A stretch of DNA of 55,353 nucleotides. Source: Elusimicrobiota bacterium (lineage in GTDB: Bacteria > Elusimicrobiota > Elusimicrobia > UBA1565). The position numbers and the translations under genes were made by a program. The notes beneath the pieces are model-generated. The model did not search any database. It had not been told where the DNA came from and saw only the letters and a list, made by a program, of their open reading frames with translations. The number at the start of each line of letters is the position of its first letter. Within the stretch, counting starts at the first letter, position 1. Where the stretch lies: the NCBI GenBank assembly GCA_043827405.1, contig JBDRPD010000052.1, forward strand, positions 1-55,353, in the 5' to 3' direction. Positions 39,326 through 54,775 of this stretch are shown piece after piece.

Positions 39326-39911
39326 CCGATTCGGGAGAGACCGTCGCGGCGGCTTCCTCCGCCGCGGGGAGATGCTTTCGCCGCGGGTCTCCGGGGCCGC
39401 GTTCGCGCCCTTCCTTCATCATGCGCCGCAGCAGCATGCGGCGGCGCTTGAGCCGGCGCTTGGCGTCCAGCATGCGCTTATTCGCGGCCACCGCCTCCCG
39501 GTTATTGGAGCGGCGCACGGCCTTCTTCATCGCGTAGCGCGCGCGCCGCACTTCGTTGAGGTCCTCTTTGATCTCCCGCTTGAGCTGGCGGAAGCGGGGG
39601 GAAACCTCGCCGTTCTCTATGGCGGCAAGGAGACGCTCTCTGCGGCGCCGCTGCTCCGCCCGGCTCTCACGCAGCCGCTCCTGCAAGCGCTCGACCGTCT
39701 CCGCATCTCCCTCGGCGCGAGCCTTGCGGATGCGGCGGCGGACGCGCCGCACCTCGCTGCGGCCTTCGCGTACGCGGTCCACGAGCTTCTGTTCGACGCC
39801 GCCGGGAGTCTCTTTTGCCCCGGCCTCCGCCGGCGGCACGGCCTCCTGCGGCTGCGCGATCGCGGCGCCGGGCAGCGCCAGCAAAGCCAGCAGCAGCCAA
39901 TAACCGGTCAT
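39309..39911 (-). CDS. Exported Arg/Glu-rich helical protein
   Basis: Signal peptide; highly charged coiled coil; overlaps both neighbours in the ECF operon. Confidence 0.7.
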   Translation of the reverse strand: MTGYWLLLALLALPGAAIAQPQEAVPPAEAGAKETPGGVEQKLVDRVREGRSEVRRVRRRIRKARAEGDAETVERLQERLRESRAEQRRRRERLLAAIENGEVSPRFRQLKREIKEDLNEVRRARYAMKKAVRRSNNREAVAANKRMLDAKRRLKRRRMLLRRMMKEGRERGPGDPRRKHLPAAEEAAATVSPESGEGEF

Positions 39912-40951
39912 GGCCGCGCCTCCCCGGCGGGCATCAGCGATTCCGCCACGCGGCGCAGGGCGTCGACACCCAGCCGCCCCAGCAGCACGAAATGATCTTC
40001 ACCCCACCACTCCAGAAACTTGCCGTCCGCGGTCAGGACCAGACGGGCGCCGGCGCCGCCCACCGCGACCTTCCCGGGTGCGGCGCCGGCGGCGGCCAGC
40101 GCCCCGGTATAACGCACCCGCGCTCGCCGCGGCGCCTGGAAAAGCGACAGCACGTCCAGACCGTCGGTGAAGCGGTAATGCAGTATCGTCGCACCTTTAT
40201 GCGGCAGAATATTGACGCTCTCAAATAAATACCCGGGCGGCAGCCAGGCGGGAATCTGCGGCCGCATATCGGTCGCGGCCGCGGCCTCGTCGAACTCCAG
40301 GTAGTCGGGCCGGATACGGCTGCGTTCCGTGCGCACCCCGGCGGGCGGGGTAAAGGTAAATTCCCAATCATCCGGCTCGGCGGGAACTTCGAGCCGGTGA
40401 AAGCTCATGCGGGACGCTTCGCTGCCGTCCGCGAGATACGCCGCACGCTGCAGCACGATGCCGTATTCCCGGTCGACCCACAGCTGGCGAACCAGGCGCC
40501 CGCCGGACCGTGCCCGCACTTCGAGCACGCGGCAAACGCGCCCCGCGACGGTTTCGTCCGCGCGCAGGCTAAACGTGTAATTGAGCTCGAGCAGGCGCTG
40601 CTCCTCATCCGGATCGAGCAGCTTGTAATCGGGATCGGCAGGCTCGCCGCGCCAAGCGGTCGCCCGCTGGCGATCGTAGATCCATTCCTCCTCACCGTCG
40701 GAAACGATGGTCAACAGCGGAAAGCCGTGGCGGTCGACGACTTCGCGCTTGTAGCGGTTCGGCGGGGCGTAGGCGACGGTCAGCAGCTTCTCCTTTTCAC
40801 GGCCGTCGTGCCGCGTCACGATCGACAGCTGGCCGGAGAAGGCGACCGCCGACGGCGCCAGGCTGTCCGCCAGCACGTCCGCCGCCGACGCCGCGTACGC
40901 CCGCGGAGCGAGCGCCAGGCAGCATGCCGCCAGCAGGGCCTTAATACACAT
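39908..40951 (-). CDS. MucB/RseB-like (LolA-fold) periplasmic sigma regulator
   Basis: Signal peptide; ETVAGRVCRVLEV, LWVDREYGIVL, PAWLPPGY, FTDGLDVLSLF; follows the anti-sigma gene. Confidence 0.78.
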   Translation of the reverse strand: MCIKALLAACCLALAPRAYAASAADVLADSLAPSAVAFSGQLSIVTRHDGREKEKLLTVAYAPPNRYKREVVDRHGFPLLTIVSDGEEEWIYDRQRATAWRGEPADPDYKLLDPDEEQRLLELNYTFSLRADETVAGRVCRVLEVRARSGGRLVRQLWVDREYGIVLQRAAYLADGSEASRMSFHRLEVPAEPDDWEFTFTPPAGVRTERSRIRPDYLEFDEAAAATDMRPQIPAWLPPGYLFESVNILPHKGATILHYRFTDGLDVLSLFQAPRRARVRYTGALAAAGAAPGKVAVGGAGARLVLTADGKFLEWWGEDHFVLLGRLGVDALRRVAESLMPAGEARP

Positions 40952-41426
40952 CGCGCTCCTCGGCCATGCCGCCGGCCAGACGCACCGGCATCTCGGACAG
41001 TATTTTCTCGGACGGCGCCAGCGGCATGGTCAGCGCGTACTGGTTGTGCGCCGCCATGAGCAGATCGGCCGGGACATCCAGGCGCGGCACCAGCAGCCCC
41101 GCCTGGCGCACCCACAGCATAAAGGCGATGCCGGCGGCCAGGGCGAACGCCGCGACGGTGTTGCGCATGCTCAACGCCGTGCGCAGAACTTCGAGCATTC
41201 CGCGCCGGGGAACGCCGCCGCCGAGCGCGGCCAGCTCCGCGGCCAGGTCCGCCGGCAGCGCGGGAACCGGAAGCTCCCGCAAAGCGGTTTTCGCCGCCCG
41301 CATCGATGCGAGCTTGCGGCGGCAGGCGGCACACTCGTCGACGTGAGCCTCCACCGAGCGCGTCTGCACGCCGCCGGTCTCGGCGTCGATATACGCCGAT
41401 AAAATATCGAATTTAGGACAGCTCAT
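40941..41426 (-). CDS. Zinc-binding (zf-HC2) membrane anti-sigma factor
   Basis: LSAYIDAE...HVDECAAC (HxxxCxxC) plus one TM; start at ATG 41426. Confidence 0.85.
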   Translation of the reverse strand: MSCPKFDILSAYIDAETGGVQTRSVEAHVDECAACRRKLASMRAAKTALRELPVPALPADLAAELAALGGGVPRRGMLEVLRTALSMRNTVAAFALAAGIAFMLWVRQAGLLVPRLDVPADLLMAAHNQYALTMPLAPSEKILSEMPVRLAGGMAEERDVY

Positions 41427-41985
41427 CGGCCGCAAACCTCTCCGCCGCGAGGACCCGGCGCAGCGCGATGCGCGCGCGGCTGATCCGGGAGCGCACGGTC
41501 CCAACCGGGACGTCGAGCACGCGGGAAATCTCCTCGTAGCACAAACCCTCCATATCGCACAGCGTCAGCGCGACCCGGTGATCGTAGGCCAGGCTGTCAA
41601 GCGCCCGCCGCACCGTTTCCGCGGCCTCCGCCCTCTCCAGAGTCTCCAGCACGCGGCCATCCTCCTCCGGAATCAAATCCTCGTACGTCAGCTGCTCGCC
41701 ATCCGCTTCCCCGCGTACGGCCCGCTCCAGGGACAGGACATTGCGGCGTTCATAGCGCTTGCGTCCATCCAGAAATACGTTGCGCAGGATGGTAAAGAAC
41801 CAGCTGTCCAGCGCGCGGGACGCGTCGTAACGGTCCCAGCTGCGCAGCACCCGGAAAAACGCCTCCTGCACGAGGTCCTTGGCATCTTCGATGTTCCCCG
41901 TCAGACGGTAAGAGAACTGAAACGCCCGCTCACCGTATTCTTCGACGAACTTATCGAACTGAGGTCCCGGCCCGTTCTGCTCCAA
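41413..41985 (-). CDS. ECF RNA polymerase sigma factor
   Basis: DAKDLVQEAF, SWFFTILRN, YEEIS...VPVGTVRSRISRAR; TTG start. Confidence 0.92.
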   Translation of the reverse strand: MEQNGPGPQFDKFVEEYGERAFQFSYRLTGNIEDAKDLVQEAFFRVLRSWDRYDASRALDSWFFTILRNVFLDGRKRYERRNVLSLERAVRGEADGEQLTYEDLIPEEDGRVLETLERAEAAETVRRALDSLAYDHRVALTLCDMEGLCYEEISRVLDVPVGTVRSRISRARIALRRVLAAERFAADELS

Positions 41986-42132: not shown

Positions 42133-42942
42133 ATGGCCCGATTGCCTACCATGGCTATGCCGCGAAGTCTATTCGACGCTTGGCCGGCTTTCGAGCGCCA
42201 ACTGCGCGCGCAGCGCGGCCTGCTCATCGCCTTTGATTTCGACGGCACGCTGGCCGCGCCGGTACCCCATCCCAACCGCTCCCGGCTCGGCGGACGCACC
42301 CGCCGCCTGCTGGAGCGGCTGCAGCGTTTAAACCGCGGCTCGACGGCGATCATCAGCGGGCGCGGCCTGGCGGACCTGCGCCGCCGCGCCGCCGCCGAGG
42401 GGCTGATCTACGCCGGCAACCACGGCATCGAGATGGCGGGCCCCGGCATCCGCTTTCTCCACCCCAAAGCGCGGGCCGCCGCGCGCGCGCTGCGGCCGAT
42501 CGCCGCGGCGCTCAAGCGCCGCCTGCGGGAGCATCCCCGAGTCCATATTGAAGACAAGCGCTTTTCGCTTTCGCTCCATTTCCAAGGAGCCCCCGCCGGC
42601 GATCAGGACGCGGTCCGCCGCGCCGTCGAGTCGGCGACCGCCGGCCGCCGGCGCAGCTTCGAAGTACTGCTGGGCCGCGGCGTCAGCGAAGTCCGCCCGC
42701 GCATCTCCTGGGAAAAGGGCGATGCCCTGCGGCGTCTGCGCGGCCGCAGCCGCCGCTTCCCGGTCTTCGTCGGCGACGATACGGTCGACGAGCACGCCTT
42801 CGCGGCCGCCCGGTCCGCCGGCGGCGCCGGCATCCGGATCGGCAGGCCGCGGCACTCCGCGGCGACCCACTACCTGGACCGGCAGAGCCAGGTGAACGAC
42901 CTGCTCGCAAGGCTGGCGCGCCTGCTCGAGGGGGCCGGCTGA
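42133..42942 (+). CDS. otsB: Trehalose-6-phosphate phosphatase (HAD)
   Basis: FDFDGTL, IISGR, GNHGIE, VGDDTVDEHAF. Start could be a slightly later ATG. Confidence 0.88.
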   Translation: MARLPTMAMPRSLFDAWPAFERQLRAQRGLLIAFDFDGTLAAPVPHPNRSRLGGRTRRLLERLQRLNRGSTAIISGRGLADLRRRAAAEGLIYAGNHGIEMAGPGIRFLHPKARAAARALRPIAAALKRRLREHPRVHIEDKRFSLSLHFQGAPAGDQDAVRRAVESATAGRRRSFEVLLGRGVSEVRPRISWEKGDALRRLRGRSRRFPVFVGDDTVDEHAFAAARSAGGAGIRIGRPRHSAATHYLDRQSQVNDLLARLARLLEGAG

Positions 42943-42944
42943 CC

Positions 42945-43739
42945 ATGCGTCCGATACTCTTCTCCTGCGGCAAGTTCAGCGTGCTCGCGGGGCCGGCCTT
43001 CGCCGCGCTCTCCGCCGTGTTCGCCTTCTTCTATATCCGCCGCTACCGGGAGCATGCCGAGCTCTCGGTGGAGGAGCTGTGGACGCTGATGGCCTATCTC
43101 ACGGCCGGCACCTTCATCGGCAGCATCGCGCTCTACCTGCTGCTCTTCGGCGGCGGTCCGGGCAAAAACATCGAGTTCATGCTGCGCTACCACGCCATCC
43201 AGGGCGGCACCTACTTCGGCAATATCCTGGGCTGCTTTCTGGCCGCCGCGCTGTTCGCGCGCCGCAGCGGCAAAAGCCTGCCGGCCATCGCGGACCTGCT
43301 GGGCGGCGCCTCCCTGCTGGCGCTGTTTCTCATGCGCTGGGGCTGCCTGCAGCACGGCTGCTGTTTCGGCAAGATCACCGATTCCGCTTTGGCGATGACC
43401 TTCCACATCCCCAACTTCGGCCTCCGCAACACCCTCATCGGCCTGCCGCTGCACCCGACGCAGCTCTACTCCTCGGCCGGCGCCCTGCTGATGTTTGCAG
43501 CCGTACACTTCGGCGTCTTCCGCCGCGTCCTGAAGCGCGAGCTGCCCGCGGGCTCGGCTTTCGTCGCCGCGACCGTCCTCTACGGAATTTTTCGCTTCCT
43601 GCTTGAGTTCCTGCGCGGCAGCGACGCCGGTATGCTGCGGCCCTTCGGCCTGACGACCTCGCAGGTGCTCGCCGCGGCGAGCGTCGGGGCGGCGCTGTAC
43701 CTGCGCCGGGCATGGCGGCACGGGAAGCCCGCGCGATGA
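42945..43739 (+). CDS. lgt: Prolipoprotein diacylglyceryl transferase-like protein (GCCxG subtype)
   Basis: MRPIL start, RWGCLQHGCCFG, HPTQLY, YGIFRFLLEFLRG; polytopic. Confidence 0.8.
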   Translation: MRPILFSCGKFSVLAGPAFAALSAVFAFFYIRRYREHAELSVEELWTLMAYLTAGTFIGSIALYLLLFGGGPGKNIEFMLRYHAIQGGTYFGNILGCFLAAALFARRSGKSLPAIADLLGGASLLALFLMRWGCLQHGCCFGKITDSALAMTFHIPNFGLRNTLIGLPLHPTQLYSSAGALLMFAAVHFGVFRRVLKRELPAGSAFVAATVLYGIFRFLLEFLRGSDAGMLRPFGLTTSQVLAAASVGAALYLRRAWRHGKPAR

Positions 43740-43746
43740 GCCGCCG

Positions 43747-44544
43747 ATGAAGCGCGAACCCCAAAGGCTCTACTACACGCTGGCGGTCCTGGGCCTGTTC
43801 GCGCTGGTGGCGCTGGCGCGCTGGGACCTCGTGGCCGGCGCCTTCCATGCGACGCGGGCCGGCATGCAGCGCGACCCGCGAACCCAGCTGCACCTGCTCT
43901 TCGAGATCGCGCTATTTTCCGGGATCATGCTGCTGACGCTGCGCGCCATCCCGCTGCGCGCGAACATGCGCCGGGACGCCCTCGTCTTCTTCTTCGCCGC
44001 CGCCGCCGGCTATTGCGCCGAAGCCTGGGGAACGCGCACCGGGCTCTGGACCTACTATACGCGTGAAGCGCCGCCGCTGTGGATCGTCCCGGTATGGTCG
44101 TTGGGCGCGCTGGTCATCGACCGCATGACCGAGCGCACGCGCGCGCTGCTGCAGCGGCGGGCCGGGGAAAAGGGCGCGCGAACGCTGTACTGGCTCATCG
44201 CGGCCGGCGCCCTGGCGCTGTGCGCGGCATTCTCGCTGCCCGCCGCCGCCGCCCCCGCGACCTGGGCGGTATGGGCGCTGCTCGCCGCCGCCTTATTCGT
44301 CAAGCCGCGCCCCACCGCGGACGTATGGCTCCTTCTGACCGGGATGTTCTATGTCTTTTTCGCCGATCTATGGGGCGTCACCAACGGCTGCTGGAGCTAC
44401 TATATCGCGCGGGCCGGAGCGCCGCTGCCGGTGCGGCTGGCGGGAGTGGGCTTCGGCATGCTCTTTGATGCGACGGTGGTTTTGGCGGTTCTCAAAACCG
44501 CGCGTCTGCTGGTCCCTGGCGAAGAAGATAACGATCATGCATAA
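43747..44544 (+). CDS. Integral membrane protein with an internally duplicated (E/D)xWG...WxYY motif
   Basis: AEAWGTRTGLWTYY and ADLWGVTNGCWSYY; multiple TM helices. Confidence 0.75.
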   Translation: MKREPQRLYYTLAVLGLFALVALARWDLVAGAFHATRAGMQRDPRTQLHLLFEIALFSGIMLLTLRAIPLRANMRRDALVFFFAAAAGYCAEAWGTRTGLWTYYTREAPPLWIVPVWSLGALVIDRMTERTRALLQRRAGEKGARTLYWLIAAGALALCAAFSLPAAAAPATWAVWALLAAALFVKPRPTADVWLLLTGMFYVFFADLWGVTNGCWSYYIARAGAPLPVRLAGVGFGMLFDATVVLAVLKTARLLVPGEEDNDHA

Positions 44545-44546
44545 TA

Positions 44547-44588
44547 TAGGCCAAAGGACCTATGTTTTCATATAGGTCCTTTGTCCCT
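44547..44588. promoter_or_regulatory. Inverted pair of TAGGNCC-type motifs upstream of the small peptide genes
   Basis: TAGGCCAAAGGACCTA (44547-44562) and TAGGTCCTTTGTCCCT (44573-44588); perfect 12-bp inverted repeat CAAAGGACCTAT/ATAGGTCCTTTG. Could alternatively act as an RNA hairpin. Confidence 0.55.
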
Positions 44589-44658
44589 TGCTTAGGTGCC
44601 GCATGAGGGCAAAGCTATCATTAGACGGATGGGGCGGACCGTCGCCCGGGAGCTATTG

Positions 44659-44955
44659 ATGAAAACGAAATTTATAAGGTTTCTGGTGGTCGCCTTCTGC
44701 ACCTCGACGCTTGGCGGGCTGGCACTGACGCCCAATGTCAGCTACGGCGCGACCGAACAAGAGACGCAGGAACATATGGCGGCGGAGAAGCTGAAAACTC
44801 AGCAGGCAATAGCGGCCCAGCAGGATTACAACTCCGGCTATAACGAAGGCTACATGCGTGCCCGTGAGGAAGAGCAGAAAAAGCTCGACGAGCAGGCATA
44901 CAATCAGAACAGCGGCTGCTGCGGCGGCGGACAACAACAGCAGCAAACGCAGTAA
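44659..44955 (+). CDS. Small secreted Gln-rich peptide with a GCCGG motif near the C-terminus
   Basis: GGAG RBS, ATG 44659; signal-like KFIRFLVVAFCTSTLGGLALTPN; ends NSGCCGGGQQQQQTQ. Confidence 0.8.
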   Translation: MKTKFIRFLVVAFCTSTLGGLALTPNVSYGATEQETQEHMAAEKLKTQQAIAAQQDYNSGYNEGYMRAREEEQKKLDEQAYNQNSGCCGGGQQQQQTQ

Positions 44956-44967
44956 CCCGAACCGGCT

Positions 44968-45198
44968 ATGAAATTCATACGCCTGGCGGTACTTGCGGTC
45001 AGCAGCCTCACCTTGGGGACTCTGGCCCTAACCCCGAACCTCGGCCATGGTAGCGAGTCCTTCCAACAGGGCTATGATGACGGAGCGAAGGCCGGCCGGC
45101 GGGCGGCACAAGAGACCGCCTCCAACAACGAAACCCAAACCGGAGGCGGAGGCTGCTGCGGCGGACAGCAGCAGCCATCCAGCAGCGGCCAGCAGTAA
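44968..45198 (+). CDS. Small secreted peptide with a GCCGG motif (paralog of the upstream gene)
   Basis: MKFIRLAVLAVSSLTLGTLALTPN...GYDDG...GGGGCCGGQQQ. Confidence 0.8.
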   Translation: MKFIRLAVLAVSSLTLGTLALTPNLGHGSESFQQGYDDGAKAGRRAAQETASNNETQTGGGGCCGGQQQPSSSGQQ

Positions 45199-45217
45199 TC
45201 GATAGCAGGGATTCGCG

Positions 45218-46087
45218 TCAGCGCTTCGAACCGGCAGTCGGTTCCGAGCGCTTTCGCTTTTTGGACTTCTTTTTCTTCTTGAGAGGGTCCTGCATGCCCG
45301 TGATCGCCGAACCGATGGAGGACAGCTTGCCCAAGTCGGCCCCCTGGGGAGCGGCCTGCTTAACCATGTTGGCCATATTGGGGATCACTTCCTTGGTGAA
45401 TCCCTGCACGTAGTCGGTCATCTTGCCGTCGGTGGTCATGAAGCGTACCATCTCGTCGTGCACCGCCTTGGGCGGCGGCTTCTTGAGCGCATCCATGCAC
45501 ATCTCGACGGCGACCTTCCAGACTTTCGGGTTCTTGGCATGCTTGCTGATGGTGCGCCGCACCTCCGGCAGGCCGATCACGGTGCGCGCCCATTTGTAAG
45601 CGTCGCGGTCTTTCGCATACTCGGCATTGGCATTCATGTAGCGCGGCAGCTTGCCGAACTCCAGGTCGACCTCACGGACAATCGCGTACTTCTTGCGGTA
45701 CTCCTGTCCGATCGCGCCGAGACGCGACTGCTCCTTGCGGATCAGATGGTCGTACTTGCGGATAAATTCCTGTTCCTGCTCACGCTTGGACATCGGCGCT
45801 TTGCCCGGCTGGTAGATGTTGCTGGTTTCGGTTACGAAGCCGCCAAGCCCGGCGCCGCTCTGGCTTTGCCGCGCGTTTGTCTCCTGCTCGAACTTGGAGA
45901 CGTAGCCGCCGCCGGCCTTCGTATGGGTATCGGGCTTCTCCCGCAGATTGAAGCCGGAGGAGTCCAGTCCTTGGTCCTCGGATTTGCCGCTGATCATTCG
46001 AATGGTAAAGAAGCCGGCCGCGAGGATGGGGAGGAGGGCCAGCAGCAGCAGGGTTGAGGATGAGCTTTTACGAGGTTGCTGGGACAT
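45218..46087 (-). CDS. Single-TM membrane-anchored hypothetical protein (paralog of 1310-2185)
   Basis: N-terminal TM LLLLALLPILAAGFFTI; shared helical domain; poly-Lys C-terminal tail. Confidence 0.8.
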   Translation of the reverse strand: MSQQPRKSSSSTLLLLALLPILAAGFFTIRMISGKSEDQGLDSSGFNLREKPDTHTKAGGGYVSKFEQETNARQSQSGAGLGGFVTETSNIYQPGKAPMSKREQEQEFIRKYDHLIRKEQSRLGAIGQEYRKKYAIVREVDLEFGKLPRYMNANAEYAKDRDAYKWARTVIGLPEVRRTISKHAKNPKVWKVAVEMCMDALKKPPPKAVHDEMVRFMTTDGKMTDYVQGFTKEVIPNMANMVKQAAPQGADLGKLSSIGSAITGMQDPLKKKKKSKKRKRSEPTAGSKR

Positions 46088-46127
46088 AGCGTTCTATAGG
46101 GAAGTGTAACACCCGGCTCAAGGGCTG

Positions 46128-47756
46128 TCAACACGACGGGCACACACGACGGGCACGCCGCCGCGCCGCAAACGGCAAAAGGTTAATCAGCAGCAGCAGC
46201 AGCGCTCCCAAATGGTAGAACGCTTCGCCGGCAAACGCATGCGGCGTGCGCATATCCATGGTCGCGACGGTCTCGACCAGCGCGCCGCGCACGTCCATAC
46301 CCAAGGTGCGCCGCAGCCGGCCGGTAGGTTCGACCACCGCGCTGATGCCGGTAGTGACGGCGCGCAACAGATACTTCCGGTTCTCGATGGCGCGCAGGCG
46401 GCTGCCGGTCAGATGATGCGTCGGGCCCAGCCCCGGCCCCAGCCAGGCGTCGCTTGACAGCGCGATCAGCAGCTGGGCGCGGTCGCGCGCATACCATGCC
46501 GCATGCCGCGCGACGAACTCCTCGTAGCAGATGTAAACGCCCAGGCGCGCGCCGTTCTCATGGAACAGCAGGGTGCGCGGACCGCGGGAGAGCGGCTCCA
46601 TACCCGGCCGGGAAAAACGGCGCAGAAAGGGGAAATAGGCGCCCAGCGGGACATACTCGCTAAACGGCGTCAAGTAATACTTCCCGACCATCCCCTGATA
46701 GCGCCGCTGCGAATCCGTAAGAAAAGCCGAGTAATACATTCGCCGCGGCCGCGTTTCATCACCCTGCAGAATGGATGTCCCGCTGAGGATGGCGGGCGCG
46801 CTGAAGCTCAAGTCCAGGCGCAGCGCTTCCTCGAGCGGCCGTCCGTCGACGCGCGGCCGGCGCCGCGCGTAGTCGCTGCGCTCGAAGGTCAGCGTCCGCT
46901 CATAGGCCGCCTGCGGCCAGACGACCAGGTCCACCGGCCCGCGCGCCAAAACCGACCGGGTCAGCTCATTGTAGACCGCGAGGTTCGATGCGAACGATTC
47001 GGGCTTTTCCACCTGCTCCCGCGGCAGCGAGCCCTGGATCACGGCGACGCGCAGAGCGAAGCCCTCGCGCATTCGCCGTGCGGCCCAAGCGTCCACCTGG
47101 CGGATGCGGACCAGGCCGTAGCATTCGTTGAGCAGCAGCAGGGCGACGGCGATCTTCAGCCCCGTCCAGCGGTACCGCGCCGCCCGGTCGGAGAAGAGCC
47201 CGACGTACAGGCAGGCATTGGCGCCGTACAGCAGCCAGGCCAGCCCCGCCGTTCCGAACACCTCCAGCAGCTGCAGGAGCGGCAGGTGGTAGAACTGGGT
47301 ATGCGCGGCGGGCAGCGGATTATAAAGGGGGAAGTAGGCCTCCGCGCAGATCATGGCCGGCACGAAAACGCAGGCCGCCGCCGTCCGCCGCGAGCAGCGC
47401 AGGAAATCCGCAAGCGCGCCGGACATCGCCGCCGCCGCGCCGCCCACGCCCGCGAGCAGCAGCCCGCTGTAAAGACAGATCGCCAGATAGCTCATGGCCG
47501 ACTCAATGGGTGAAAAAACGAGATAGGTCTCGATCGTATCCAGGAACCAGCGAAAGCCAATCAGCCAGGAGAGCGTCCCGAAAGCCCAGCTCCAGAGAAA
47601 AGCGCGAACCGGACCAAGCCGCTCCAGCATGCGCAAAAACGGCACCAGCGCGAACCACATGAGAAGGCCCCATGGTCCCGGCGTATGTCCCAGAGAGTAC
47701 AGGACAGCGCCGAGCAGGAGGGCCCCCGCGCGGCGGCGCAGCGCAGCGCTCAGCAC
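46128..47756 (-). CDS. lnt: Apolipoprotein N-acyltransferase-like protein
   Basis: N-terminal TMs; VIQGSLP, VVWPQ, KYYLTPFSEY, ICYE, SSDAW, RAIENRKYLLRAVTTGISA; GTG start at 47756 overlaps the upstream stop. Confidence 0.85.
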   Translation of the reverse strand: MLSAALRRRAGALLLGAVLYSLGHTPGPWGLLMWFALVPFLRMLERLGPVRAFLWSWAFGTLSWLIGFRWFLDTIETYLVFSPIESAMSYLAICLYSGLLLAGVGGAAAAMSGALADFLRCSRRTAAACVFVPAMICAEAYFPLYNPLPAAHTQFYHLPLLQLLEVFGTAGLAWLLYGANACLYVGLFSDRAARYRWTGLKIAVALLLLNECYGLVRIRQVDAWAARRMREGFALRVAVIQGSLPREQVEKPESFASNLAVYNELTRSVLARGPVDLVVWPQAAYERTLTFERSDYARRRPRVDGRPLEEALRLDLSFSAPAILSGTSILQGDETRPRRMYYSAFLTDSQRRYQGMVGKYYLTPFSEYVPLGAYFPFLRRFSRPGMEPLSRGPRTLLFHENGARLGVYICYEEFVARHAAWYARDRAQLLIALSSDAWLGPGLGPTHHLTGSRLRAIENRKYLLRAVTTGISAVVEPTGRLRRTLGMDVRGALVETVATMDMRTPHAFAGEAFYHLGALLLLLINLLPFAARRRARRVCPSC

Positions 47757-49069
47757 GCGCGCTCCGCGGCGCGCGGCCAGGTCTCCCGCAGGAACCGGTC
47801 GACGGCGAGAAACACGCCGTCGGTATTCAGATAGTCCCAGCGTCCGCTGCGGCCGAGCAGGTACAGCCCCTGTTCTTCCAGGCGGCGCTCCAGCCCGGCG
47901 ACGGCCTCCGGCAGGCCGAGCGTCTGGATGGGATAGGTGCAGCGCTCCAGGTGCGCGGCCGCCAGCTCGACATCGCTCTCGGCGGCGAGAATTCCGGTCT
48001 CCGACAAGCCGCGCAGGACCTGCGCCGTCACCGCACCTTCCGTCAGCCCCGGCGCGCCCCGCCGGCGGGTGATCTCGGCGACCACGGTCGGCGGGCGATC
48101 CGGATCGAGCGGCTGCATCATGGTCAGGCGGTAGAAGGCCTCGGGTCCGGCGAAGAACGTCCAGTGGTTGCCGCCGCAGCGGGCGAAGGTCCGCCCGGCC
48201 TTGAGCCCGACGACCGCAAAGTAGGTGTCGTTGCAGAGGAAGCTGCCCGCCTGACCCGACAGGTCCTGGTCCGCCAGCGCGCCCAGAAGCTCGGGGATTG
48301 GAATGGTCGACACAACGATATCCGCCGCCACCTCCCCGCCGGCGCCGCGAACCTTCCACCCGCCGCCGGAACGCCGCAGCTCACGCACCGGCCAGCCGGT
48401 GCGGATATGCGGCCGAATCTCCGCCGCCACCGCTTCCGGCAGCGCTCCCGCGCCGCCGGCTCGGGGATACAGGAAGTTCGCCTGATAGGTCCGCCCTACC
48501 GTGCCGCGGACAAAACCGTTGCGCAGGATCTTCCAGGCCGGCTCCGGCTCGATCTTGCCCCGCACCAGCGCCATGGAAATGCGGTCCAGCGGACAGTCCC
48601 ATATTTTCTCGTTGTATGGCGTCATAAAATGCCGCGCGATCCCGGCGCCCAGGCCGTTGGCGATCCAGTGCTCGAGGTTCCGGTAATTCCGGTCGCCGCA
48701 GAGAGCGGCGCGCAGATAGCCGAGCACGCACTCCATCTTGTGCCCGAACGGCAGATCGGCCAGACCGTTCTCAAACGGATAGTGCAGCTCGCGGATACCG
48801 CCGCCGGGCTCGCGATGGGCGACGCGGACCCGGCGCTGCCGCTCGTGGTATTCGACCGGCAGCTCGCGATAGAAATCCATAGCCGCCGGCTCGCGGCTGT
48901 AAAAGGCGTGCGGCCCGAGGTCCCAGCTGTAGGCGCCGCGGCGCAGGCTGCGGCACAGTCCGCCGACGACGTCGCGGCTCTCCAGCACCACGCAGTCGAC
49001 GCCCTTGGCGCGCAAACGGCGGCAGAGCTGCAGCCCCGTCAGGCCGCCGCCGAGGACCGCCGCCTTCAT
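47750..49069 (-). CDS. FAD-dependent oxidoreductase (protoporphyrinogen oxidase / UDP-galactopyranose mutase-like)
   Basis: VLGGGLTGL, GGLCRS, WDLGPHAF, PYNEKIW, GRSGRWDYLNTD. Confidence 0.8.
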   Translation of the reverse strand: MKAAVLGGGLTGLQLCRRLRAKGVDCVVLESRDVVGGLCRSLRRGAYSWDLGPHAFYSREPAAMDFYRELPVEYHERQRRVRVAHREPGGGIRELHYPFENGLADLPFGHKMECVLGYLRAALCGDRNYRNLEHWIANGLGAGIARHFMTPYNEKIWDCPLDRISMALVRGKIEPEPAWKILRNGFVRGTVGRTYQANFLYPRAGGAGALPEAVAAEIRPHIRTGWPVRELRRSGGGWKVRGAGGEVAADIVVSTIPIPELLGALADQDLSGQAGSFLCNDTYFAVVGLKAGRTFARCGGNHWTFFAGPEAFYRLTMMQPLDPDRPPTVVAEITRRRGAPGLTEGAVTAQVLRGLSETGILAAESDVELAAAHLERCTYPIQTLGLPEAVAGLERRLEEQGLYLLGRSGRWDYLNTDGVFLAVDRFLRETWPRAAERAC

Positions 49070-49788: not shown

Positions 49789-49894
49789 GAGGTAAAATAG
49801 CAAAAAAGCTCTTGAAATCCTCGCAAAATGGGGGTATATATGTAGTACCCCTCTGGTGGCGGCCGTCTGGTCCCGGCCCCTAGCGGGGCTTACT

Positions 49895-52800
49895 ATGAGG
49901 AAAAGCGCCGCCCTGCTTTTAGCTGTCGCCGTCTCCCTGCAGCCCGTGGGGGGCGGCCTTTCTTATGCCGCCCAAACAGTCGAAGATCCCGCTCCGCTAA
50001 CCGCCGAGTTTCTCGACCGGCTCGACCGGACGATTGCCGACTCCTTCACCCGGGCCAAGCTCGATGCCGTCGATATGGACGCCGCGGCGCTGCGCGCCCG
50101 CATCGCGCAAACAGCGACGCCCATCGCGCGCGCCAACCTGAACCTGCGCATAAGGGAAATCGGGACGCGCCACGGCTATTACCAAGCCCTGCTCTCGGCG
50201 GTCGCGGCACAGGACAAGAGTGCGATCTCGGCCCAAGTCGGTTTGCTCGGCGACGCCTTTCCGGCGCTCAGGGCGGATAAAGAAGGGCTGAACAAGACCT
50301 ATCAGCTGCTGGCGGAAAAAGGGCTGGCGGCGGTCACCGGGGAGAAGACGCCGCAGCATCCCAATGACAACAAGCTCGCCCAGGGCCTGCAGGCGCGCGT
50401 CGGCACGATGAACAGGCTTCCGGCGGCGCTGCACGGCAAAGCGGGCGGCGACAAGTATTACGACGGCAGCATGCAGCGCGGCGCAGCGGCGGCGGACCCG
50501 AAGCTTCCCGGAGGGCCTGACGAAACAAGCAAGACCAATGCCGCCGGGATGAAGAGCTCCGACTTCCAGCCCCGGCAGGCGGCCCTTACCGTCTCGGACG
50601 TCCCCATGAGCTCCCGGTCCACCAAGCTGGAGGCCGACCGCTACGGGACGAACAGCCCCTTCATGAATAAACTGGCGCTCTCCTTCCATACCGCGGCGGC
50701 CAACGTGACTTTGCCCGGCGCGCTCGACCGCTCCCTCGACGCCGTGCGCGCCCAGCACAAGGGAGAGGCCTACCGCCTCACCGACGACCAGATCACCACC
50801 GACCGGGGACAACGGACCGCGGAATTCATCAGCGGGCTCGGCGCGGACACTCCCGACATTAAGAAGCTGCAGGGGATATACCAGGAGGCCGTCAGCAAGA
50901 ACGATCCCGAGCTTATGCGCAAGTTCCTCGACCGCGCCGACAACGCGATCACCCGGCTGGACGCGCCGGCGCTGCGCGGCGAGCGGGACAAACGGACCTC
51001 CTACGCCGCCGCTCTCGAGGAAACCCAGACGGCGATGAACAGCTTTGCCGGGCTCATCGAGAGCCGCCGCCCGGAAATGAAATCGAGCCTTATGAAGCTC
51101 GCGGACAATCCCGGAGCGTTGTCGGAGGGGGAGTGGGCGGGCTTGCAGGACGCCTTCCAGGAGCACCGGGATTCCCCGGAGTTCAAGGCTTTCATGCAGG
51201 CGCGCGCGCAGATGAACGGAGCGCGCGCCGGCCTCGATGAATTCTACGCCGCCAACCCCCTGCTCGCCCGCTACCGCGCCGACCTCGCCTCTTCGGCGCG
51301 CTTTCACTGGCAGGCCATGCTCGGCGGATTGGTAAAGGACGGGACCTGGTTCTCACCGCATGAGCTGCAGGCGCACGATGTGCCGCCGGGAGCGTCGCTG
51401 GTCAAGGGCACCGAGACCGGCCGCGCCGGCCTGTGGACCATGGTGGGCGGCAAAAAGACCAGCTTTAAAAGCTTCGACGGCCGCTACACCGCCGAGCAGT
51501 TCACCGACGCCGAGGGTACGCCGCTCGAACGGCGCATAACGGCGAACAAGCCCGGACAGGCGCCCGACGTAGAGATCATCAACCAGGGAAATAAGAAAGG
51601 GGGATGGAAGCGTCACGTCGGCACTTTGGCCGGCGGCAAGTTCGTCCACGCCTTCACCGAATACAAGGACGGCTCCTTCGACTTGGACACCGAAGCGCTG
51701 TTCGCCGCCGAGCGGGGAGCGGCCAGACAGCAGCCGGCGGCCGATACCGCCGGCGCCATCGTAAAGCTGCTGGGCTGGAAGGACGAGGGCGGCGCCCGCT
51801 CCGGACCGCTCGCCCAGTGGCTGGCGGACGGCTACTCCAAGGGCCAGGGCATCAAAGCGATGCGCCTGCGGGCGCAGAAAGACGGCACCCTGCACGTCAT
51901 TTACGAGCGCTCCGGGGGCGCCCAGGAAATCCGTACCGCCAAGTTCGCCAAAGCCTCCAAGTTTCAGGACCAGGACATGGGCGAAGCGCTGGTGGTGCTC
52001 AAAAAATCCTGGATTCGCGCCGACGGCAGCAAGGATATTCAGCTGCAGCGAACGATGGAATACCTGCCCGACGGCTCACGGCTCTTGTGGAATGAGCAGT
52101 TCGAGAGCACCGAGGCGGGCTGGGTAAAATCGCGCAAGAACCATACCCGCATCTCGCTCAAGCACGTCAAGCGCCGCGCCGACGGGACGCTGGACTGGAA
52201 TAATGCCGGCGTCGAGCGCCGCGCGGAGCTCGACCTCACCGAGGACGTCGACACCACGTCGACTCTCGGGATGGTGAGCGCCGCCCTGCACGACACCCCG
52301 GCTCTCGGCCATGCGCTCAAGGGGCTCGGCTGGGTCGGCGACCGCGGCTACAACGGCGTGGTCGGCGGCTACCAAGGATTGATCGGCGAGATCGCCGACA
52401 GCCCCATCTACCGCGTCCACGGCATGGCCGGCTCCAAGCGCATGGTAATGTCGCGCGATGATGAGCGCTGGGAAAACGTCGCGGCTTCCTTCGGCCGCCG
52501 CGAGAAAGCCGTCATCGACGGCGACGTCCACCGCCTGCGCAGCCGCCACCTAAGCCAGCAGGGCCTGCAGCGCGAGCGCATGCTCGACGATAAGGCCTAC
52601 CAGGACTTCCGCTACCGCGAGATCACCGATAAGGAGCGCGGCCATACGCTGGCCACCGCCGTCGGCGCCGGGACCTACGGCCAGTACTTCGCCGACCTGG
52701 CGGCCGAGGAAACCGGGATCAACCGCGTTCTCTACGAGACCGCCGGCGTCGGCATGACGACGCTCGAGAGCATACCGCAGACCTTGCCGGTCCTGCTGGC

Positions 52801-54775
52801 GCTCGGCCCGCTGGGCAAGGCGGCGGGGACCGGCAGCTGGGCGGTGCGCGGCGTGTCGCTGGCCCGCGTCGGTCACGCCGTCGTTACCCCTTACGTCATG
52901 ACCTCCTGGGGCGTCAATATCCCGCTGGGCGTCAACGACTTCGTCGAGGGCATCCAGGAAGGCGACCCGCACAAGACCGTGCGCGGCGGCGGCCAGGCCC
53001 TGACCGACGCCTTGTTCCTGGCGGTCGCGGCCAAGGACTTCGCCAAGACCCTAAAATCGCAGCGCACCCAGGCGCAGGTCAAAAATTTCGACAAAGCGCT
53101 GACCGAACCCCAAAGCGCGCCCAAGATCAAGCCCAAGCGGGCGCACAACCCCAAGTCCGCGGCGCAGGGGAAAAGCAAAACCGTCGCCCATCCGGTGAAG
53201 GAGACGGTAAAGGCAAGAGGCGAGTCGAAGGCCGGCCGCGAGGTCCAGGCCGACGCCCTGATGGAGCAGCAGGTGGCCAAGCGCGGCGAGTACCTGGAGA
53301 GCCGCAAGACCGACGCTAAAGCCGGCAGGGAAACGGTCGAGCAGCGCCAGACGCGGGCGCTGGAAGAGCGCGCGCTGGCGAAGAAGGCCTACAGCGAAGC
53401 GGTCGAAATCGGCAAGGGCGCCAAAGAAAGCCCGGTCAGCGAAGCCGGCGTCGATGCCGCCATCGCCGAAGGGACCCTGGCCGAAAACAGCAATCTCAAC
53501 GTAGCGCAGCAGGGCTCGCAGACCTGCGCGCTGCACGCCTGGACCAACCATCTCAACTCGGCCGGCGTGAAGATCACGCTCGGCGAGGTGTTTAAAGTAG
53601 TCGAGCAGCGCCTCGGCCCGGAGCTGCTGCAGAAGGCCAAGACCCAGGGGCTGTCGCAGGCCGAGACCATGCTCGTCTACAAGGCCGTGGCGTTGGAGAA
53701 AGGCATCAGCCTCGAGCGCGTCCCCGCCGGCAAGGTGTTCTCCAAGATCGCCCAGGAAGGCAACAGTGCCTCGATGACCATGCGCACCGGCGAGGGGCAT
53801 CACCAGGTCGTCGTCGAAGGCGTCGTCCAGGGCAAAAACGGCGGCAAGTACGTCTCCTACATCGACTCGCAGACCGGCGGCCGCACCTTCATGCCGGTCG
53901 AGCTGTTCGCCAAGCTGGCCCGCTCCGACGGCCTGGTCGCCGGCAAGAAGGCTGCGCCGCAGACCTATGCCGAGTGGCGCTCCGAGTTCAAGGCCTTCAA
54001 GAAGGGGAAGATCAAGTTCGCCGCCGAGAAGGACGCGATGAAGCTGGAGGAGCTCGTCGACGGGGGGGAGACGGCGCGCGTCGGCCAGGGCGAGGCCCCG
54101 CCGCCGATGAAGGTGATGGAAGCGCTCGATAAGCTGCTGGACGATCCCGCCAATATCGCCAAGATCAAGGACAACCCGAACGCCTACCGCAATATTCTCG
54201 GCAAGATGATGGGCGGCAAGAAGCAGGCGTCGAAGCCGCTCAACGAAGCGCAGATCGTAGAGGCGCAGCGGGCCTATAAGCAGCAGCTTATGCCGGAAGC
54301 GAAGAAGGTATTGGAACGCTACAACCTCACCGAGGCCGATGTCGTCTCGCACGGCACCAGCCTGCAGGGCCTGATGGGAATGATCTTCGAGGGCGGCATC
54401 CGGGCCTCCGACTCCTTCGGCGACGGAGCCAAGCATTGGGCGGCAAAGGGCACCGGCGGCGCGACCTATATCGCGGCGCCGGCCGGACGCGGCGAGCCGG
54501 GCGTCGTCGTCATCATTGAGAACAAGGGCAACCGTCTCGGCCATACGATCGACTATACGGCGAAGTCGCCCCAGGTCATGAGCGACTTCCTGGCCGTCAT
54601 TATCACCGACGGCGCCAAGACCGTGGTTCTCGACAAGGCGCAGCTTATGACCTTGGGCTCCTCGGCCAAGGCCTGGAAGACCAAGGTCAGCGACTACAAC
54701 CAGCCCGGCTGGAAGATGAGCGACTTCTCCGCCTGGGAGAAGTACCAGAAGATCTTCGAGTCGACCAAGCGCTGA
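49895..54775 (+). CDS. Giant exported multidomain protein, polymorphic-toxin-like: C39/papain-like protease domain and C-terminal ART-like domain
   Basis: Signal peptide from ATG 49895; hydrophobic segment near 52770-53030; QQGSQTCALHA...HHQVVV...YIDS protease motifs at about 53500-53900; VSHGTS...MIFEGGIRAS from about 54344. The ORF is solid; the domain calls are by eye. Confidence 0.7.
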   Translation: MRKSAALLLAVAVSLQPVGGGLSYAAQTVEDPAPLTAEFLDRLDRTIADSFTRAKLDAVDMDAAALRARIAQTATPIARANLNLRIREIGTRHGYYQALLSAVAAQDKSAISAQVGLLGDAFPALRADKEGLNKTYQLLAEKGLAAVTGEKTPQHPNDNKLAQGLQARVGTMNRLPAALHGKAGGDKYYDGSMQRGAAAADPKLPGGPDETSKTNAAGMKSSDFQPRQAALTVSDVPMSSRSTKLEADRYGTNSPFMNKLALSFHTAAANVTLPGALDRSLDAVRAQHKGEAYRLTDDQITTDRGQRTAEFISGLGADTPDIKKLQGIYQEAVSKNDPELMRKFLDRADNAITRLDAPALRGERDKRTSYAAALEETQTAMNSFAGLIESRRPEMKSSLMKLADNPGALSEGEWAGLQDAFQEHRDSPEFKAFMQARAQMNGARAGLDEFYAANPLLARYRADLASSARFHWQAMLGGLVKDGTWFSPHELQAHDVPPGASLVKGTETGRAGLWTMVGGKKTSFKSFDGRYTAEQFTDAEGTPLERRITANKPGQAPDVEIINQGNKKGGWKRHVGTLAGGKFVHAFTEYKDGSFDLDTEALFAAERGAARQQPAADTAGAIVKLLGWKDEGGARSGPLAQWLADGYSKGQGIKAMRLRAQKDGTLHVIYERSGGAQEIRTAKFAKASKFQDQDMGEALVVLKKSWIRADGSKDIQLQRTMEYLPDGSRLLWNEQFESTEAGWVKSRKNHTRISLKHVKRRADGTLDWNNAGVERRAELDLTEDVDTTSTLGMVSAALHDTPALGHALKGLGWVGDRGYNGVVGGYQGLIGEIADSPIYRVHGMAGSKRMVMSRDDERWENVAASFGRREKAVIDGDVHRLRSRHLSQQGLQRERMLDDKAYQDFRYREITDKERGHTLATAVGAGTYGQYFADLAAEETGINRVLYETAGVGMTTLESIPQTLPVLLALGPLGKAAGTGSWAVRGVSLARVGHAVVTPYVMTSWGVNIPLGVNDFVEGIQEGDPHKTVRGGGQALTDALFLAVAAKDFAKTLKSQRTQAQVKNFDKALTEPQSAPKIKPKRAHNPKSAAQGKSKTVAHPVKETVKARGESKAGREVQADALMEQQVAKRGEYLESRKTDAKAGRETVEQRQTRALEERALAKKAYSEAVEIGKGAKESPVSEAGVDAAIAEGTLAENSNLNVAQQGSQTCALHAWTNHLNSAGVKITLGEVFKVVEQRLGPELLQKAKTQGLSQAETMLVYKAVALEKGISLERVPAGKVFSKIAQEGNSASMTMRTGEGHHQVVVEGVVQGKNGGKYVSYIDSQTGGRTFMPVELFAKLARSDGLVAGKKAAPQTYAEWRSEFKAFKKGKIKFAAEKDAMKLEELVDGGETARVGQGEAPPPMKVMEALDKLLDDPANIAKIKDNPNAYRNILGKMMGGKKQASKPLNEAQIVEAQRAYKQQLMPEAKKVLERYNLTEADVVSHGTSLQGLMGMIFEGGIRASDSFGDGAKHWAAKGTGGATYIAAPAGRGEPGVVVIIENKGNRLGHTIDYTAKSPQVMSDFLAVIITDGAKTVVLDKAQLMTLGSSAKAWKTKVSDYNQPGWKMSDFSAWEKYQKIFESTKR

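Follow-up and report, generated by a model that had tools for sequence, protein, structure and literature searches.

A conserved Elusimicrobiota gene cassette joining additional Lgt and Lnt paralogs to small exported peptides with an invariant cysteine: a candidate peptide-lipidation pathway

Organization of the locus

The locus described here lies on contig JBDRPD010000052.1 of an Elusimicrobiota bacterium (assembly GCA_043827405.1), whose full 55,353 nucleotides are termed the window. An earlier note on this DNA had proposed that two small secreted peptides, flanked by Lgt-like and Lnt-like genes, form a dedicated peptide-lipidation system, and all six of the open reading frames (ORFs) that it had placed there were confirmed in position. 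On the forward strand, lgt2 (42945..43739) encodes a 264-residue, cassette-specific paralog of prolipoprotein diacylglyceryl transferase, assigned by PF01790 and by its place in a tree. It is followed by the gene for Mem (43747..44544, +), a 265-residue polytopic membrane protein with an internal two-fold repeat, which has no Pfam match and is described from an AlphaFold2 (AF2) model, and by the genes for peptide A (44659..44955, +) and peptide B (44968..45198, +). Peptide A (98 residues) consists of a leader, a linker and an SGCCG motif, with the invariant cysteine at position 88 (Cys88, encoded at 44920-44922) and a 10-residue tail, and peptide B (76 residues) has the same plan, with GGCCG, invariant Cys64 (45157-45159) and a 12-residue tail. 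Converging on these from the reverse strand are the gene for TM289 (45218..46087, -), a protein with one N-terminal transmembrane (TM) helix, an all-helical domain and no family match, and lnt2 (46128..47756, -), which encodes a 542-residue, cassette-specific paralog of apolipoprotein N-acyltransferase, assigned by TIGR00546 and by tree.

The locus represents a real, conserved system that is apparently undescribed; a literature search, with most subscription journals outside its coverage, yielded no description of the cassette. The genes probably specify a dedicated pathway for the lipidation of the invariant cysteine of small, exported, lipobox-less peptides, in which the dedicated paralog Lgt2 would attach the lipid. 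In the following, genomes of the phylum bear the prefix G (G000 being that of the window), loci L, contigs C and families f.

Co-occurrence and clustering across the phylum

The distribution of the components was surveyed in 401 genomes sampled from the phylum, and the named close homologs are Elusimicrobiota. The Lgt2 profile matched 21 genomes, 19 of them at 287 bits or higher; the two borderline matches that came next, G076 (221 bits) and G200 (215 bits), were excluded. At an E-value of 0.01 the peptide profile matched 24 genomes, of which 19 carry true family members, while five weak matches (G269, G274, G373, G389 and G248) were dropped, none having both the leader and the Cys motif. The TM289 profile matched 52 genomes, 19 at E 4e-48 or lower and the other 33 at 3e-15 or worse. 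The sets of 19 genomes with Lgt2, peptide and TM289 are identical. Mem occurs in 18 of the 401 genomes, which together with G319 make up the same 19, and Lnt2 in 14 of 381, all among the 19. G382 and G394 have an Lnt2 in their loci.

The components are also physically linked. In 15 of the 19 genomes, lgt2 and a peptide gene share a contig at a distance of no more than 2.3 kb. The four exceptions are G313 and G382, broken at contig ends, G316, in which the modules are ~26 kb apart, and G319, in which they are scattered; extra unlinked peptide copies occur in G176, G344 and G319, all of which bear Lgt2. Around Mem, 20 loci show lgt2, TM289, lnt2 and one to three peptide genes recurring in several gene orders, and the cluster persists despite this rearrangement across families f1, f3, f5 and f14. 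In G354 and G276 Mem has moved off, and lgt2, the peptides, TM289 and lnt2 remain together. Among 80 metagenome loci, some of which duplicate surveyed genomes, Lgt2 is adjacent in 25 of the 29 with a close Mem, and peptide, TM289 or Lnt2 was present in none of the 49 with a distant Mem. The cassette comprises three modules that co-occur, cluster and fuse, namely Lgt2-Mem, a glycosyltransferase (GT) with Lnt2, and TM289 with the peptides; the GT-Lnt2 module is optional, since G301 has neither component.

Two circumstances weigh against a full reading of these counts: the profiles were built from cassette members, such that the matches in those genomes arise partly by construction, and 10 of the 19 genomes belong to one family, whose kin are not independent (the cassette is present in 10 of 10 genomes of the window's family and is patchy elsewhere, in 5 of 48, 3 of 47 and 1 of 1). 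The informative part is that none of the components turned up by itself in the remaining ~380 genomes, and that G354, G276, G316 and G319 gave components absent from profile building. The earlier note had allowed that the adjacency could be coincidental, i.e., a chance meeting of housekeeping genes and unrelated small ORFs. This explanation is extremely improbable, given that Lgt2 and Lnt2 are paralogs separate from the other copies, that the clustering is conserved with rearranged order, and that the presence and absence of the components match and two kinds of gene fusion join them.

The peptide family

Peptides A and B share the leader, a GYxxG motif and GCCGG followed by Gln, as the earlier note had described. 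Of the genome's 74,984 six-frame segments, only two contain the pattern CCGG[GQ]?Q, namely peptides A and B themselves, and a genome search with peptide A retrieves the leader of peptide B at E 0.003. Pfam and NCBIfam scans of the two peptides gave no family, no NCBIfam family matched more than four of 19 peptides (best E 0.0017), and a homolog search with a single peptide returned only the query. The leader of peptide B alone was matched on an Acidobacteriota contig (L014:6001-6066; 64% over 22 residues). In total, 51 peptides were collected, and 38 aligned family members were used for leader and motif counts; lengths across the family range from 44 to 185 residues. Of the features shared by A and B, LALTP (3 of the 38), GYxxG (8), GCCGG (10) and the Gln run (2) are each found in a minority of homologs, and LALTPN, GYxxG and the Gln run are lineage-specific.

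The leader, of ~24 residues, has a basic n-region and a hydrophobic helix that ends in [ML]-[AS]-[VIL]-[ST] near residue 24. The position where a lipobox Cys would sit is S or T in 35 of the 38, and a lipobox ([LVI][ASTVI][GAS]C) closing the signal peptide was found in none of them, which extends to the family what had been noticed for A and B. Peak hydropathy over 15 residues lies between 1.8 and 3.1 in all 38 leaders, and Lys and Arg are in excess before the helix in 32, after it in none and tied in six, in agreement with an N-in orientation. A strict AxA site is present in 13 of the 38 leaders, and many others have looser signal-peptidase-like sites. The linker that follows is variable (15-107 residues), of low complexity and rich in A, S, G, T, E, Q, D and N.

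The conservation of both ends around such a linker, including the constant length and ending of the leader (S/T in 35 of 38) and the limited number of strict AxA sites, would suit peptides anchored at both ends, with an uncleaved N-terminal helix and a lipidated C-terminal Cys inserted in another membrane or complex, as a tether of variable length. Linkers of down to 15 residues are, however, short for spanning a periplasm, signal-peptidase-like sites of a looser kind are present in many leaders, and such a product would leave Lnt2 with no free amine. A tether is very improbable; the lipidation step itself is common to it and to the dedicated pathway favoured here.

The C-terminal signature is G-[C/S/N]-C-[G/S]. 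Conservation of the Cys motif had been set beforehand as a test, and the second Cys was found in 51 of 51 peptides, always followed by G or S, and the first in 48 of 51. The five residues at the site read GGCCG in 32 peptides, SGCCG in six, GGCCS in six, GGSCG in two (both in G316) and CGNCG in one (G301), with four single variants. After the second Cys, 29 of the 51 peptides have a single residue, 18 have 2-12 and four have 28-91. These four long tails hold further Cys residues, and the remaining tails are polar. The long-tail, Cys-rich peptides (L208:1712-2281, L047:2755-2997, L067:2080-2289 and L200:10080-10334; P0281) are the best natural substrates for mapping a mature N-terminus. The longest tail (91 residues) contains an internal repeat.

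Many of the peptide genes are preceded, as judged by eye, by a promoter of the TTGAC...TATA[CA]T type together with a ribosome-binding site that looks strong. As in peptides that ribosomes synthesize and that are modified after translation (RiPPs), the precursors are short, with a conserved leader and core, and are clustered with the genes of candidate modifying enzymes; the modification itself is predicted from sequence.

The earlier note had also offered disulfide formation or metal binding as roles for the CC motif, an option that the conservation pattern weakens. The peptides would in that case be periplasmic binders acting through the vicinal pair, while the Lgt and Lnt paralogs would serve other substrates within the same envelope-stress regulon. 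Consistent with this, GGCCG also ends a protein that we take to be ArsD-like, the weak match in G389, and a cluster of extracytoplasmic function (ECF) sigma, anti-sigma and RseB-like genes adjoins the cassette in f1. Against it, the first Cys is replaced by Ser in two G316 peptides and by Asn in G301, which makes the vicinal pair dispensable, neither a metal transporter nor an oxidoreductase is a constant neighbour, and the presence of Lgt2 and peptides in the same 19 of 401 genomes is left unexplained. Overall, such a role is quite improbable.

Lgt2, an additional Lgt paralog

Lgt2 matches PF01790 at 112 bits (cut-off 24.9), which upholds its description as Lgt-like, and aligns with the solved Lgt structure 5azb at E 4e-6, and it falls below the cut-off of the housekeeping model TIGR00544 (61.5 versus 118.9). 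The window's genome contains three Lgt genes, of which the copies on C62 (184 bits) and C56 (146 bits) score higher than the cassette copy (112 bits), and a single lsp gene on C105, unlinked to the cassette. Two to four Lgt genes were seen per genome, in tandem in G301 and G276. In a tree, 40 Lgt2 rows lie on one side of a branch with 99/97 support and 13 other Lgt copies from the same genomes on the other; this tree and that of Lnt are unrooted, with groups set by profile score and all rows drawn from this phylum or from metagenome loci.

The alignment was read with presumed roles for the residues of E. coli Lgt other than His103. Lgt2 retains the Arg, GCxxxGCCxG, HPxQ and YxxxRF elements. 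An N-terminal Tyr motif is present in 13 of 13 other Lgt copies and in none of the 39 Lgt2 rows that cover the position, and a late conserved Glu is mostly Asp in Lgt2. His103, proposed to be catalytic in E. coli Lgt (PMC8689077), is replaced by Phe in the window's Lgt2; His occupies this position in none of the 53 Lgt rows, other copies included, and its loss therefore does not separate Lgt2 from the other copies of these genomes. In all the Lgt copies seen in these genomes, GCxxxGCCxG stands at the position of the E. coli signature motif. Its three Cys residues, near the conserved His of HPxQ, could bind a metal in these proteins and thereby activate the thiol of the substrate.

Mem, a repeat membrane protein

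The earlier note had recognized a duplicated motif in the membrane protein, and its two halves are indeed homologous to each other (hhalign 98.7%). A Pfam scan gave no family for Mem, and NCBIfam only a weak match to CBO0543. The AF2 model has a predicted local distance difference test score (pLDDT) of 95. Its best fold match is the mycobacterial Insig homolog MvINS (4xu4), at Z 9.3 with a root-mean-square deviation (rmsd) of 5.0 over 158 aligned residues, a value that is moderate for a helical protein, the level advised for such proteins being Z 13; the next match is at Z 6.0. Foldseek gave a probability of 0.98 and E 0.07 for the same pair, and MvINS was the top match in both structure searches. 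The pocket of MvINS contains density resembling diacylglycerol (DAG) (bioRxiv 2021.06.03.446951). Across the 113 aligned rows of Mem, E92 and C215 never vary, and D or E always occupies position 207. Other look-alikes, as atlas or Pfam leads, are DUF817, DUF2878 and lycopene-cyclase-type membrane proteins. Lgt-Mem fusions were seen in six of the 120 homologs listed and in one ORF of G394.

Distant Mem homologs, from Chloroflexi where named, keep E92, C215 and the acid at 207 and stand without Lgt2. In one atlas cluster, the Mem domain lies within a 788-residue archaeal DUF362 protein.

Lnt2, the linked glycosyltransferase and TM289

Lnt2 has PF20154 and PF00795 domains, reaches 189 bits with TIGR00546 (cut-off 132.9), in keeping with its description as Lnt-like, and can be aligned to solved Lnt. 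The genome holds four Lnt-like genes (C47 at 275 bits, the cassette copy at 190, C91 and C94) in addition to nitrilase-type matches, and the highest-scoring of these, on C47, adjoins a gene that is secA-like by sequence. The earlier note had suggested a search for canonical lgt and lnt, and higher-scoring copies of both exist outside the cassette. In the Lnt tree, 27 Lnt2 rows are separated from 12 other Lnt by a branch with a support of 99. The catalytic Lys and Cys are present in 27 of 27 and the full Glu-Lys-Cys triad in 20 of 27; in place of the Glu, five copies have Gln (one subclade, which includes the window's copy), one has Gly and one is unaligned or gapped. Extra copies of Lnt2 or TM289 lie away from peptides in several f1 genomes (L197 and L205 in G316, L253 in G180, L254 and L255 in G341), and of the three Lnt2 copies in G316, two carry Glu and one carries Gln where the catalytic Glu is expected.

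A GT domain of the ceramide-glucosyltransferase/HpnI-like family (PF13506) is fused to the N-terminus of Lnt2 in seven of nine long Lnt2 ORFs scanned and in one from G341. Elsewhere a separate PF13506 gene adjoins lnt2 (seven scanned, with further cases in the alignment). The linked GT passes the PF13506 cut-off and does not reach the HpnI equivalog (81-106 bits versus 310); its alignment shows DxD-, ED- and RW-like motifs, to which we ascribe their presumed glycosyltransferase roles. The window's genome has one GT ortholog, which is unlinked (C83:246248-247501, -). Orthologs of the GT were searched for in G000 and G301 only, and G301 has neither an Lnt2 nor a GT that could be found.

These enzymes also suit another explanation, in which the cassette would serve to make or remodel a glycolipid of the membrane: the GT and Lnt2 would build an N-acylated sugar lipid, and the peptide Cys would serve as a transient carrier of diacylglyceryl or acyl groups, or as a regulator. 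The closest relatives of the linked GT, HpnI and ceramide glucosyltransferases, act on lipids, and the DUF817, DUF2878 and lycopene-cyclase-type look-alikes of Mem point the same way, as do the PRK07208-like flavoproteins, phosphomannomutase, HAD phosphatases and geranylgeranyl-reductase-like gene that recur nearby. The same CCG ends in tandem paralogs would fit a multi-copy carrier. However, G301 has Lgt2, Mem, TM289 and peptide with neither GT nor Lnt2, which indicates that the peptide tracks Lgt2 and not the GT; four peptides have long Cys-rich tails that resemble cargo, and the GT is unlinked in the window's own genome. A glycolipid function is accordingly regarded as unlikely.

TM289 gave no family in Pfam or NCBIfam scans, and its AF2 model is helical, with no structural match (best Z 4.4). 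The family comprises 141 representatives. An orientation tally for TM289 gave 27 N-in, 20 C-in and 18 ties. An STI1/ubiquilin-like domain (PF23195, PF17830) was found in none of 20 close homologs and in four of 20 distant paralogs, at the C-terminus and in all cases below cut-off. A predicted complex of TM289 with the peptide (score 0.01, mark 0.32) weighs neither way. TM289 is a putative scaffold or chaperone. Distant paralogs are widespread in the order without the cassette (33 genomes; e.g., L249:4843-5604 on C32 of G000). Directly 5' of one of them, at L250:1044-1295 (+) on C14 of G000, lies a small Cys-rich ORF with a lipobox-like site, a hint that the wider TM289 family accompanies small lipoproteins.

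A proposed pathway and its weak points

The claim of a dedicated system is well supported, because the Lgt and Lnt of the cassette are additional to other copies in the genome, the Cys is conserved and the peptides occur only with Lgt2: all 19 peptide genomes have it, 15 of them within 2.3 kb. We infer the (glyco)lipidation chemistry of the cassette from its enzymes, Lgt and Lnt each being known to act on the Cys of an exported peptide (PMC8689077). In the sequence of events envisaged, the basic hydrophobic leader would direct Sec export of the peptide, with its C-terminus outside. The leader would stay in the membrane, where Lgt2 would dock on it, and the flexible linker, never shorter than 15 residues, would allow the G-x-C-G motif to fold back into the site of Lgt2 for transfer of diacylglyceryl onto the second Cys. 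Mem, with its fold of the DAG-cavity type and its invariant acid and Cys, would handle the lipid or cut the chain in place of Lsp; cleavage before the Cys would be due either to Mem or to the housekeeping Lsp. Lnt2 would then add an acyl chain, most simply on the freed Cys amine, and the HpnI-like GT would glycosylate either the product or a lipid partner.

Two products can be envisaged. The chain may be cut before the Cys, to give a triacyl Cys-Gly-type lipopeptide or mini-lipoprotein, an outcome that is put forward tentatively as a real possibility. Cleavage is favoured because Lnt needs a free Cys amine (PMC8689077) and because of the four long tails; Cys-bearing tails after the motif would be natural if the Cys were the first residue of a mature lipoprotein. 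Alternatively, the peptide may keep its linker and be anchored at its C-terminus, which is favoured by the occurrence of many paralogs with one core and is held to be rather doubtful. In its fullest form, the scheme would constitute a self-contained second lipoprotein pathway, with a Cys-less pseudo-lipobox leader recognized by Lgt2, a remote Cys as the site of lipidation, an Insig-fold substitute for Lsp and a GT-Lnt that finishes a glyco-lipo-dipeptide (acyl, diacylglyceryl-Cys-Gly) or a mini-lipoprotein; this elaboration is possible and, on present evidence, somewhat unlikely.

Several observations weigh against the lipidation pathway as proposed. Without His103 or the N-terminal Tyr, and mostly with Asp in place of the late Glu, Lgt2 could have a different chemistry. 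The catalytic Glu of Lnt activates the catalytic Cys (PMC8689077), and the Lnt2 copies that lack it, the window's included, may have a lost or changed activity. No Lnt2 was detected in G090, G301 or G319, and no Mem in G319. The cassette contains no Lsp, the sole lsp being on C105, and the casting of Mem as a peptidase that replaces Lsp is a guess; among 34 neighbour proteins scanned, the distant Mem homologs showed neither consistent neighbours nor a recurring informative family. Finally, it would be uneconomical to discard a variable linker only to release an identical Cys-Gly from up to three paralogs.

Comparison with known systems

A close parallel is the general Lgt-Lsp-Lnt maturation route (PMC8689077), which shares with the cassette homologous Lgt and Lnt, an exported substrate with an N-terminal hydrophobic helix, and a single invariant Cys with small residues before it and G or S after it. 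In contrast, the cassette peptides have no lipobox (0 of 38), and their Cys lies 15-107 residues further along, mostly near the C-terminus; moreover, the cassette has dedicated paralogs beside the substrate genes, no Lsp, and two extra uncharacterised families.

MYXO-CTERM proteins likewise combine an N-terminal signal peptide with a Gly/Cys motif and an invariant Cys near the C-terminus. The related signals include a generic GCGC and, in TraA, an adjacent CC (PMC11980579, bioRxiv 2023.06.07.544157), and an unidentified Lgt-like enzyme has been predicted to lipidate the MYXO-CTERM Cys (PMC11980579). Unlike these, the cassette peptides have no TM helix or Arg cluster after the Cys (29 of 51 have a one-residue tail), the substrates are tiny, and genomic linkage connects the motif with a dedicated Lgt paralog. 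No CPBP-family myxosortase was found among the cassette genes and 48 neighbours scanned, the rest of the genomes not having been searched for the family.

DAG-RiPPs rely on the endogenous pathway for lipoproteins and on an N-terminal Cys that follows the signal peptide, and they have an MNIO tailoring enzyme (PMC13056109). They resemble the cassette peptides as small, exported, ribosomal peptides for which diacylglyceryl and N-acyl groups on Cys are predicted; in the cassette, the part of dedicated tailoring genes falls to those of the lipid enzymes themselves, and a scan of cassette genes and neighbours showed no MNIO. In the actinobacterial ppm operon (Ppm1 and Lnt/Ppm2), a GT2 enzyme is coupled to an Lnt that acts on ordinary lipobox proteins (PMC3460810), and the genetic coupling of GT and Lnt, which links lipoprotein N-acylation to glycosylation, is common to both systems. 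The cassette GT, by contrast, is HpnI/GT21-like (below the HpnI cut-off) and in fusions stands on the N-terminal side of Lnt2, and the genes seen near the cassette include no protein mannosyltransferase. The GGCC-like end and the lipid on Cys also recall the C-terminal CC motif of Rab proteins. Rab prenylation is cytosolic and eukaryotic, uses isoprenyl chemistry and modifies both Cys residues; its enzyme is unrelated, and in the cassette the first Cys can be Ser or Asn.

Regulatory elements and neighbouring genes

A 12-bp inverted repeat (44552..44583) lies 5' of the peptide genes. It is one instance of a TAGGYCYTTNGNCC-type motif that recurs, often inverted or in tandem, in intergenic DNA genome-wide, a looser form having 30 matches in the window's genome. 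A cassette-specific operator was thus ruled out, and a global regulator or a nucleoid protein may bind at the motif. It also stands 5' of peptide genes in several f1 relatives. A sigma-70-like promoter match (10 of 12 positions) precedes TM289 (46103..46131, -), as a consensus match only, with three found against 1.2 expected.

Beyond lnt2 is a gene for an accessory, PRK07208-like, FAD-dependent oxidoreductase (47750..49069, -), whose stop overlaps the lnt2 start and which adjoins lnt2 in only some relatives. On the other side, an ECF sigma factor, an anti-sigma-like ORF and an RseB/MucB-like gene (39908-41985 in the window) are divergent from lgt2 in eight related f1 loci; a possible function is envelope-stress control. 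The window has an inserted trehalose-phosphatase gene (42133-42942) separating lgt2 from this cluster. At 49856-54775, a 1,639-residue ORF starts in the manner of a signal peptide, matches nothing in Pfam at E 0.01, resembles polymorphic proteins and is followed by a tetratricopeptide repeat (TPR) protein.

Implications

The accepted view is that Lgt requires a lipobox where the signal peptide ends; in this cassette, co-occurrence, clustering and fusion link a dedicated Lgt paralog to peptides whose only conserved Cys lies far downstream. The cassette offers an enzyme together with candidate natural substrates, of 44-185 residues, for direct tests of lipobox-independent Lgt activity, and a portable C-terminal lipid-anchoring tag could be one outcome. 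It also places two uncharacterised membrane families, and a new GT-Lnt fusion, in a functional setting. If the reading as a second lipoprotein pathway were true, these bacteria would make a membrane lipid from a peptide precursor, and the bacterial Insig-like family would acquire its first enzymatic role.

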